From Dehalococcoidia bacterium UBA5629 (lineage in GTDB: Bacteria; Chloroflexota; Dehalococcoidia; GIF9; UBA5629), in contig DIKB01000080.1 of NCBI GenBank assembly GCA_002421445.1, positions 288 through 38,106 of the forward strand: a stretch of 37,819 nucleotides of DNA. Direction: 5' to 3'. The position numbers and the translations under genes were made by a program. The notes beneath the pieces were generated by a model. The model ran no database searches and had not been told where the DNA came from. It was given only the letters and a program-made list of their open reading frames with translations. This document shows positions 22,271 through 37,819 of the stretch, piece after piece. How positions within the stretch are numbered: position 1 is the first letter of the stretch; each line of letters starts with the position of its first letter.

Positions 22271-23134
22271 TTAGCTTAATATGGCCTGCAAGTCCGATAT
22301 TTGTCGTGTATCGATTTTTCCCTTGGCAAGTGCGATAGGTAGAGTCTGTCTACCCAGTTCTTTATAAATAGTAAAAGCTGCCGGCACCTGCGTTCGCAGT
22401 GCGTCCAGATGTTTTTTGATAGTACCGCTATCTCCTCGTGCGATCGGTCCGGTCAGACAATCAGGGAGTCCGACTGTTTCGATGTTATGCAATGTCCCTT
22501 TTATCAGAGGAGCGAGCGCTTTAATAGCCTGCTCCTGTGGGACGCCGAATGTTTGCCACAGGTCTGTGGCCAGTTTTACCAGCGTAACGAAATAATTTGA
22601 GGCGAAGACGGCCGCGGCATGATACAGCACTTTATCTCCCGGCTTCAGGATTATCCAGTTACCTTCGAGATCGTTAGCCATATCTTTCAGTATGCTGAGC
22701 AGTCCATTCTGCGCTTCTATGCCGAATGTCGATCCGGGCAGATTATCGATGGCATGCTCGATGCTGGCAAAGGTCTGTAAGGGGTGAAAGCAGCCGGTAT
22801 GTCCTCCGCTGGTTTCTGCATGTTTGAGGATATCGATTGAATGTACGCCACTGCAATGGACGACGTATTGACCGTCATGCCATTTTATTTCAGAAGCGAT
22901 TTTAGCGATGACGTCATCCGGTGTCGTGATAAAGGTGAGCTGAGTTTTATCGGCTACTTCCTGTGCGGTGTGATATGCGTTGCAGCCTGGTATTCTCGCT
23001 GCCAGCTTTTGTGCGGATGAGAAGCTCCGGCTGGAGGCGGCGACGACTTCATAACCCCTCTGGCTTAGCCTGACAGCCAGAGCGGTCCCTGTGGTTCCTG
23101 CACCTATGAAACCAATCTTGAGCATTTTCCTCAC
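22271..23134 (-). CDS. Rossmann-fold NAD(P)-dependent oxidoreductase (DUF2520-like); candidate ketopantoate reductase of the pan operon
   Basis: 287 aa with an N-terminal GxGxxG motif ([14 protein letters not shown]). It is the first gene of the operon, 13 nt upstream of panD. GTG start at 23134 with AAGGAAGG 8 nt upstream; the alternative start is ATG 23125. The function is inferred from context. Confidence 0.6.
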
Positions 23135-23154
23135 TCCGAAAGCCTTCCTTTATT

Positions 23155-23197
23155 CCAATAAAAAAGCCTTCTCATTATCCCCGAGAAGGCTTTTTAC
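23155..23197 (-). terminator. Intrinsic (rho-independent) terminator hairpin with flanking A/U runs, inside the pan leader
   Basis: The arms AAAAAGCCTTCTC (23161-23173) and GAGAAGGCTTTTT (23183-23195) are perfectly complementary, with a 9-nt loop. On the - strand the GC-rich stem is followed by UUUUUUAUU. It lies 27 nt upstream of the GTG at 23134 and about 215 nt downstream of the flavodoxin stop. Confidence 0.75.
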
Positions 23198-23332
23198 ATG
23201 CGCTAATACAACCCCGTCTCGGTCTTTCCGATCCAAGCGGATACTATTTAATTGATTTACAACCGGCTCACCGCTTCTTACGAAGTCGATGGCTTACGAC
23301 ATAATGCTAGTGCATTCTAAAAGTTTTGTCAA
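23198..23332 (-). promoter_or_regulatory. Candidate promoter plus structured 5' leader of the pantothenate operon (possible attenuator or pan-motif-like element)
   Basis: On the - strand: TTGACA (23332-23327), a 17-nt spacer and TAGCAT, followed by about 100 nt of non-coding sequence. That sequence has a 6-bp stem AAGCGG...CCGCTT and two GGTTGTA motifs 51 nt apart (plus-strand TACAACC at 23207-23213 and 23258-23264). A CCGAGA element (plus 23217-23222) is complementary to UCUCGG in the 5' arm/loop of the terminator. Confidence 0.4.
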
Positions 23333-37408: not shown

Positions 37409-37819
37409 TTATGTTATAACCTGTGCTGCTTTCAAAAACATGAGTATTGCAATGATGACCATGATGCCGGCGAAGATTGACCTCAGGAGATCTCCCCTTG
37501 TTTTTTGCATCAGCCGTGCGCCAATTCGCGCACCGATATAGGCTCCGATGATAAGCGATGCGGCGACGAATGGGTCTATCAGCCCGTTTTGAAAAAACAC
37601 CAGCGCGCCGACTGATGCTGTCATCATAATGATAAAGCTGCTGGTCGCAATGGCTGCTTTTATGGGCACTCCCATTAGGATATTCATGACCGGTATATTA
37701 ATGATACCACCGCCGACACCCAGCAGGCTGGCAAGGATGCCGGCAAAGGTACTGATGGCCATTGCCGGCCCGGTTTTATTAAACCGGTATCTGATGGTTG
37801 TTTGCTCTTCTTTATCGAA
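37409..37819 (-). CDS. TauE/SafE (DUF81) family anion/sulfite exporter, C-terminal part (the gene runs off the right edge)
   Basis: The ORF is open to the window edge. The sequence ...GILASLLGVGGGIINIPVMNILMGVPIKAAIATSSF...IGAYIGARIGARL is the typical DUF81 repeat signature. Confidence 0.7.
   Translation of the reverse strand, partial: FDKEEQTTIRYRFNKTGPAMAISTFAGILASLLGVGGGIINIPVMNILMGVPIKAAIATSSFIIMMTASVGALVFFQNGLIDPFVAASLIIGAYIGARIGARLMQKTRGDLLRSIFAGIMVIIAILMFLKAAQVIT

Follow-up and report, generated by a model that had tools for sequence, protein, structure and literature searches.

The Pantothenate Operon and Its Leader

The window analyzed here is a stretch of 37,819 nucleotides from contig DIKB01000080.1 of Dehalococcoidia bacterium UBA5629, and all coordinates given without further reference are positions within it. 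The source genome assembly amounts to 1.27 Mb and is 81% complete. An operon for the biosynthesis of pantothenate is encoded on the minus strand. Its first gene (23125-22271) codes for an oxidoreductase with Rossmann-like and DUF2520 domains (Pfam PF10728, 1.8e-37; PF10727, 7.2e-15). This gene is followed by panD for aspartate 1-decarboxylase (22257-21856; PF02261, 2.1e-50), panB for ketopantoate hydroxymethyltransferase (21947-21009; PF02548, 7.9e-120), and panC for pantoate-beta-alanine ligase (21009-20164; PF02569, 5.4e-105). The open reading frame listed for panB overlaps panD at its start, and the real start of panB is probably further downstream. Judged from context only, the DUF2520 gene appears to fill the slot expected for ketopantoate reductase. 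In the literature searched, DUF2520 was not found to be linked to any proven ketopantoate reductase, and the first gene is therefore not named PanG or PanE.

The operon is preceded by a leader of ~170 nucleotides, upstream of which a flavodoxin gene is read from the same strand (23853-23413). In the direction of transcription, a promoter is followed by two hairpins with bulged adenosines (23294-23214), an intrinsic terminator (23195-23160), and then the pan operon. The predicted fold of the leader was better than that of 200 of 200 shuffled sequences (z = -2.96). The promoter-like element is of the sigma-70 type (23332-23304, minus strand) and consists of TTGACA (23332-23327), a 17-nucleotide spacer, and TAGCAT (23309-23304), with 10 of 12 matches. 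The initial annotation had placed such an element between the flavodoxin stop codon and the pan operon, and the comparison with other genomes agrees with this assignment. Of 126 related leaders, 116 keep an equivalent -35/-10 pair in register, and in 111 of these 116 the -10 element ends 5-8 nucleotides before the first base of the RNA motif described below. The RNA therefore begins with the first hairpin, and the transcript start in the window is predicted to be at or just 5' of the first base of this motif.

The first gene of the operon probably starts at the ATG at 23125-23123, with GGAG (23137-23134) as the probable Shine-Dalgarno sequence. The GTG at 23134, preceded by AAGGAAGG, had been taken as the start codon with its ribosome binding site. 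This assignment is less likely because the corresponding GTG in a sister copy of the operon (L002) runs in frame into a TAA, which is located between the GTG and the ATG. The ATG at 23125 is conserved in the relatives.

The sister copy is found in the same assembly (contig C41, 1415-3047) and aligns to positions 23340-21711 of the window with an identity of 83.4%. It extends from the promoter through the leader, the terminator, the DUF2520 gene, and panD into the first part of panB. The homology begins exactly at the promoter, and the upstream neighbor of the sister copy is a gene for a ZIP transporter and not a flavodoxin gene. An identity of 83% is too low for a strain variant, and L002 is either a true paralogous operon or a contig of a related organism that was binned with this assembly. 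A pair of matches to the motif was likewise obtained from two other genomes of the order.

Attenuation by a leader peptide was also considered and was rejected, since the leader has no reading frame beyond one of four codons that begins with GUG and an AUG-UAA pair. A match to the Phe_leader family scored 22 bits against a cut-off of 55 and stems from the terminator alone.

Identification of the pan Motif

The window was searched with all Rfam families. The sole match above threshold is the pan motif (RF01749) at 23294-23210 of the minus strand, with a score of 38.2 bits relative to a gathering score of 36.2 bits. Model positions 1-92 are all aligned, with E values of 0.003 in the search of the whole window and 2.4e-5 in that of the genome, where a second pan match is found on another contig. 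The initial annotation had suggested a pan-motif RNA and a search with the Rfam model, and after this search the assignment of the leader to the pan family is nearly certain.

The pan family goes back to Weinberg et al. (2010, Genome Biol 11:R31, PMC2864571), who reported tandem hairpins with bulged adenosines before panB, panC, and the genes for aspartate decarboxylase in three phyla, one of which was the Chloroflexi. The leader in the window has the same features. Two hairpins, each with two conserved bulged adenosines, are arranged in tandem with a linker of 24 nucleotides between them, which is the usual form outside of the delta-proteobacteria. They are located in a 5' untranslated region, with a promoter directly upstream and panD, panB, and panC in the same operon. 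We find no essential difference between this copy and the family. The score is near the cut-off because the upper stem of the first hairpin is longer and carries a GUAA loop and because the 3' tail is without the consensus AAGG.

The Rfam alignment defines hairpin 1 as AGCCAUCGACUUC-GUAA-GAAGCGGUGAGCC (23294-23265), with a GNRA-type loop. Its bulged adenosines at 23286 (5' strand) and 23268 (3' strand) are invariant in 36 aligned relatives, and its stem is supported by compensatory changes among these homologues, with six of the nine stem pairs changed on both sides. The linker (23264-23241) is rich in A and U, and its length and sequence vary among the relatives. Hairpin 2 (23240-23214) has the sequence CCGCUUGGAUC-GGAAA-GACCGAGACGG, with one bulged adenosine on each strand; these, too, are invariant in the 36 relatives. 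The sequence of hairpin 2 is almost invariant throughout the order, and the four stem segments that were tallied (the lower and middle stem on both strands) are identical in 106 of 129 leaders. Hairpin 2 is consequently uninformative with regard to compensatory changes.

The Intrinsic Terminator

The second part of the leader is an intrinsic terminator (23195-23160, minus strand) with a perfect stem of 13 base pairs, a loop of nine nucleotides, and six U residues. The 5' arm AAAAAGCCUUCUC (23195-23183) and the 3' arm GAGAAGGCUUUUU (23173-23161) enclose the loop GGGGAUAAU, and an extra U is located at 23160. The energy was -17.6 kcal/mol in a custom scan of the window and -17.4 kcal/mol for the stem alone. 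A standard terminator scan allows for loops of up to 8 nucleotides and missed this hairpin because its loop has nine. The perfect 13-bp hairpin with a U-run reported earlier is present, and no other terminator in the window is as clean. The earlier statement that it is the only one is not supported. The custom scan gave weaker candidates, hairpins with U-runs, at three other sites: 18684-18641 (minus strand, -13.4 kcal/mol), 17032-16989 (minus strand, -16.6 kcal/mol), and 37731-37780 (plus strand, -19.9 kcal/mol).

In the alignment of 36 leaders, 12 of the 13 stem pairs of the terminator change on both sides. When hairpin 1, hairpin 2, and the terminator are taken together, 93.5% of the cells are paired and 19 pairs are changed on both sides. 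None of 500 shuffled alignments reached these values, and in controls in which the structure was slid along the alignment, 32-50% of the cells were paired.

Since the hairpin and the flavodoxin gene share a strand, with the hairpin 3' of the stop codon, it might be supposed to terminate the flavodoxin message, with the pan operon transcribed from elsewhere. This is extremely improbable, and it is contradicted by the comparative data. More than 200 nucleotides separate the hairpin from the stop codon, and a conserved promoter and the pan motif lie in between. The same unit stands before pan genes in ~120 genomes in which the upstream genes differ and are found in either orientation, and the sister copy, which is homologous exactly from the promoter on, adjoins the gene for the ZIP transporter instead. 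Because the upstream genes vary in both identity and orientation, the hairpin belongs to the pan leader and not to the flavodoxin gene. The earlier proposal of a regulatory role rather than a gene-end role is in keeping with this result, as the unit is kept in 120 of 151 genomes whatever gene lies upstream.

A Proposed Alternative Pairing Between the pan Motif and the Terminator

The 3' strand of hairpin 2, denoted here as segment 2 (CCGAGACGG, 23222-23214), is complementary to segment 3 (CCUUCUCGG, 23189-23181), which consists of the upper 5' arm of the terminator and the first two bases of its loop. The initial annotation had noted CCGAGA (23222-23217) and UCUCGG (23186-23181) as a possible antiterminator. 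The complementarity extends further, to six base pairs, one mismatch, and two base pairs (CCGAGA.CGG versus CC.UCUCGG). Since segment 2 is itself a strand of hairpin 2, neither hairpin 2 nor the terminator can form when segments 2 and 3 are paired.

The potential for this pairing is conserved. In the alignment of related leaders, 92% of the cells of the antiterminator are paired, compared with 45-68% in slid controls. For 124 leaders, the mean duplex energy of segments 2 and 3 was -12.9 kcal/mol, compared with -6.9 kcal/mol for shuffled arms. A footprint of the pairing is found in the 5' arm of the terminator. Among 122 leaders, the eight positions of this arm that face segment 2 are 89-99% conserved, whereas the two positions of the stem that do not face segment 2 covary freely (U-A in 61 and C-G in 55 leaders; A-U in 63 and G-C in 35 leaders). 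One-sided wobble changes at the antiterminator positions number 40 on the 3' arm versus 8 on the 5' arm in the same leaders. In one lineage, CCGAGA has changed to CCAGGA jointly with a change of UCUCGG to UCCUGG. The cognate duplex of this lineage was calculated at -15.6 kcal/mol, and the noncognate duplexes at about -10 kcal/mol. Among the Dehalococcoidales types, duplex energies distinguished cognate from noncognate partners, which they failed to do among the G-rich types of other phyla.

The alignment of related leaders had been proposed in the initial annotation as a check for covariation in the predicted stems. Covariation was obtained for hairpin 1 and for the terminator but not for the antiterminator, for which the MAFFT alignment contained no pairs changed on both sides and the shuffled alignments gave equal values. 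Both strands of the antiterminator are nearly invariant.

The folding of the nascent RNA was calculated for a transcript of 121 nucleotides that ends before the 3' arm of the terminator. The fold of minimum free energy contains the antiterminator at -32.0 kcal/mol, versus -29.8 kcal/mol with hairpin 2 forced, and the antiterminator is favored in the window by ~2 kcal/mol. Once the leader is complete, hairpin 2 and the terminator make up the favored fold at -46.8 kcal/mol. Among 122 leaders, the fold of the nascent transcript contains the antiterminator in 51 and hairpin 2 in 67, and the stability of hairpin 2 surpasses that of the best fold lacking it by a mean of 3.4 kcal/mol. The antiterminator is weakened in some lineages, including one genus with UCCCGG and locus L008. 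The conserved pairing potential, the footprint in the 5' arm, and the fold of the nascent transcript support the proposed antiterminator without proving it.

Related Leaders in the Order and in Other Phyla

Members of the pan family were found in 30 of 41 close relatives. Within the order, 120 of the 151 genomes sampled gave a match, and the unit of promoter, pan motif, and terminator occurs in these 120. Only 11 of 151 genomes sampled across the phylum gave a match. A terminator was called 0-22 nucleotides after hairpin 2 in nearly all of the related leaders.

A pattern scan for variants of hairpin 2 was used to look beyond the order. Such variants were found in the Syntrophales and other Thermodesulfobacteriota, Desulfitobacteriaceae, Acidaminococcaceae, Nitrospinota, and Acidobacteriota. 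Many of these copies stand before a terminator with a 5' arm (such as CCUCCCGUC) that complements the 3' end of the hairpin and its AAGG tail; in the leaders of the Syntrophales type, GGGACGGAAGG pairs with CCUCCCGUC. Outside the order, the duplex energies were better than those of shuffled controls in only 37% of the loci. The sequence of the panB leader from Bacillus subtilis is printed in the supplement to PMC2864571. In the computed fold of its nascent transcript, GACAGAGGGAU pairs with AUCCUUCUCGUU at -12.7 kcal/mol and replaces hairpin 2 before the 3' arm of the terminator exists. The layout of an antiterminator followed by a terminator is the same as that in the window.

Other arrangements were also encountered. 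At loci L035 and L038, from high-GC members of the same phylum, the pan motif precedes a gene that begins with MLVAADIDNT and resembles a type III pantothenate kinase, so the regulon of the motif reaches beyond the synthesis of pantothenate. There is no intrinsic terminator near the motif at these two loci, and control may be exerted there on translation. At loci from Nitrospinota (L130, L134, L136, L139, L142, and similar ones), a pan hairpin resembling hairpin 2 directly follows or overlaps the apparent end of an upstream coding frame that is conserved, and another 80-110 nucleotides separate it from the nearest hairpin resembling a terminator. This arrangement is unlike that in the window.

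Proposed Mechanism of Regulation

The leader is a new copy of an RNA motif that was catalogued in 2010 and is not a new kind of element. A mechanism for the expression platform was not described in the paper that introduced the motif (PMC2864571), and the overlap with an antiterminator was worked out in the present analysis. In a search of the literature, no experimental study of the pan motif after the 2010 description was found. The value of the present comparison is that ~120 related leaders and the panB leader of B. subtilis point to one simple and testable wiring.

We consider it probable, with appreciable room for doubt, that the pan motif is fused here to a platform for the termination of transcription and that a factor which closes hairpin 2 promotes the terminator and turns the operon off. 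In the mechanism that we propose, transcription would start from the operon's own promoter, and the message would open with the two bulged-A hairpins. Segment 2 would then have two rival partners, its own 5' strand in hairpin 2 or the 5' arm of the terminator in the antiterminator. If the antiterminator were formed during transcription, the terminator could not form, and the DUF2520-panD-panB-panC operon would be transcribed. A factor that recognizes the bulged-A hairpins would hold hairpin 2 closed, with the consequence that the terminator would form and the polymerase would stop at the U-run. Without this factor, segment 3 would capture segment 2, and the polymerase would read through. The factor could be a protein, possibly a dimeric one, or a metabolite of the pathway for pantothenate and CoA. 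Hairpin 2 would serve as an anti-antiterminator, and the element as a whole as an off-switch that feeds back on the synthesis of pantothenate. That switching takes place in vivo, its direction, and the nature of the signal are inferences. The earlier reading of this region as an attenuator or regulatory leader is supported by the match to the pan family, the conserved unit, and the conserved potential for an antiterminator.

The closest parallel is found in the pyr operon of B. subtilis. Attenuation by PyrR depends on an anti-antiterminator hairpin that is bound by the factor, an antiterminator, and an intrinsic terminator, and the binding of PyrR loaded with the end product leads to termination. 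This three-part logic matches that proposed for the pan leader. The sequence and shape of the hairpins are unrelated, however, and the pan leader has two hairpins, only the second of which overlaps the antiterminator. We know of no PyrR-like protein that has been identified for pan. A similar platform is found in the terminator-type SAM-I and TPP off-riboswitches of Firmicutes, where the 3' strand of the helix stabilized by the ligand doubles as the 5' strand of the antiterminator, and where the choice is a kinetic one, made while the RNA is being transcribed. The sharing of a strand is alike in the pan leader, but the SAM-I and TPP aptamers are complex multihelix folds with proven ligands, whereas pan has a simple stem interrupted by two bulges, and no ligand is known for it.

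The hairpins could also form a genuine riboswitch aptamer, or two aptamers in tandem, and bind a small molecule of the CoA pathway without a protein. In that case, the logic of the platform would be unchanged. We regard this as unlikely. The position in cis before biosynthetic genes and the terminator/antiterminator platform are typical of riboswitches, the bulged adenosines and their neighboring bases are invariant while the stem of hairpin 1 covaries, and the occurrence of the family before a coaX-like gene in other Chloroflexota would be consistent with one signal shared by the pathway. The candidate ligands would include pantoate, 4'-phosphopantothenate, 4'-phosphopantetheine, dephospho-CoA, and acyl-CoA. 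Against a riboswitch, the hairpin is very simple and offers little room for a binding pocket, and the dimeric arrangement was taken by the original authors as a hint of a dimeric protein partner (PMC2864571). In-line probing of a pan RNA from Geobacter revealed no modulation by pantothenate, CoA, or beta-alanine at 1 mM, although this construct contained a single hairpin (PMC2864571, supplement). That the tandem hairpins themselves sense a metabolite such as 4'-phosphopantetheine, pantoate, or acyl-CoA, the binding of which closes hairpin 2 and triggers termination, is to our minds similarly doubtful. If this were the case, pan would be a very small class of riboswitch for vitamin B5/CoA in at least three phyla, B. 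subtilis included.

It is less probable still that the terminator attenuates partially and constitutively or is simply an insulator, that the pan hairpins act in some other way (on the stability of the message, on translation, or as a docking site for a protein), and that the complementarity of segments 2 and 3 is due to descent and has no function. The absence of covariation for the antiterminator in the alignment would be expected under this explanation, as would its weakness in some lineages, the formation of hairpin 2 ahead of the antiterminator and usually as the more stable fold, and the occurrence of the hairpin without a nearby terminator in high-GC relatives and in some other phyla. 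It leaves unexplained, however, why the positions of the 5' arm that face segment 2 are frozen beside neighbors in the same stem that covary freely, why CCAGGA and UCCUGG have changed jointly, and why the same overlap was reached with other sequences in B. subtilis and the Syntrophales. An on-switch, in which a factor binds when the product of the pathway is scarce and favors read-through, is highly improbable. Termination by default is plausible, because hairpin 2 together with the terminator is the thermodynamic ground state, but the conserved and recognizable structure is the hairpin, and the hairpin and the antiterminator are mutually exclusive, so that any factor that binds the hairpin would favor the terminator. 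Under the proposed off-switch, the last pan hairpin competes with the antiterminator, and whatever binds this hairpin would turn the synthesis of pantothenate off. The wiring indicates which mutations would be informative and provides a read-out, termination at the leader hairpin, in a tractable organism.

Additional Features of the Leader and Its Relatives

Two repeats had been noted in the leader. The nine-nucleotide sequence GAAGGCTTT from the 3' arm of the terminator does recur at 23147-23139, as annotated, but the proposal that the ribosome binding site might be masked through it was not sustained. The repeat lies upstream of the probable Shine-Dalgarno sequence, is degraded in the sister copy (GAAAGCTTT), and is absent from the other relatives. 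The two copies of GGTTGTA are likewise present, at 23264-23258 and 23213-23207, 51 nucleotides apart. No role for this pair is supported; a repeat of seven nucleotides within ~200 nucleotides is expected roughly once by chance, and the pair is conserved no further than the sister contig.

The gene that follows the pan leader differs among the relatives. A DUF2520-type oxidoreductase is the first gene in at least 44 of 129 related leaders. In at least 57 of the 129 (including L003, L007, and L008), it is not a pan gene but a gene for a peptidase of family S58 (DmpA-like). From its position, an S58 aminopeptidase under pan control might supply beta-alanine. At locus L004, ~60-110 nucleotides past the pan motif, the 3' arm of the terminator and the first codons of the S58 gene occur twice in tandem (…gctgagaaggtttt…atgtataacgc…), which looks like a local duplication or an artefact of the assembly.
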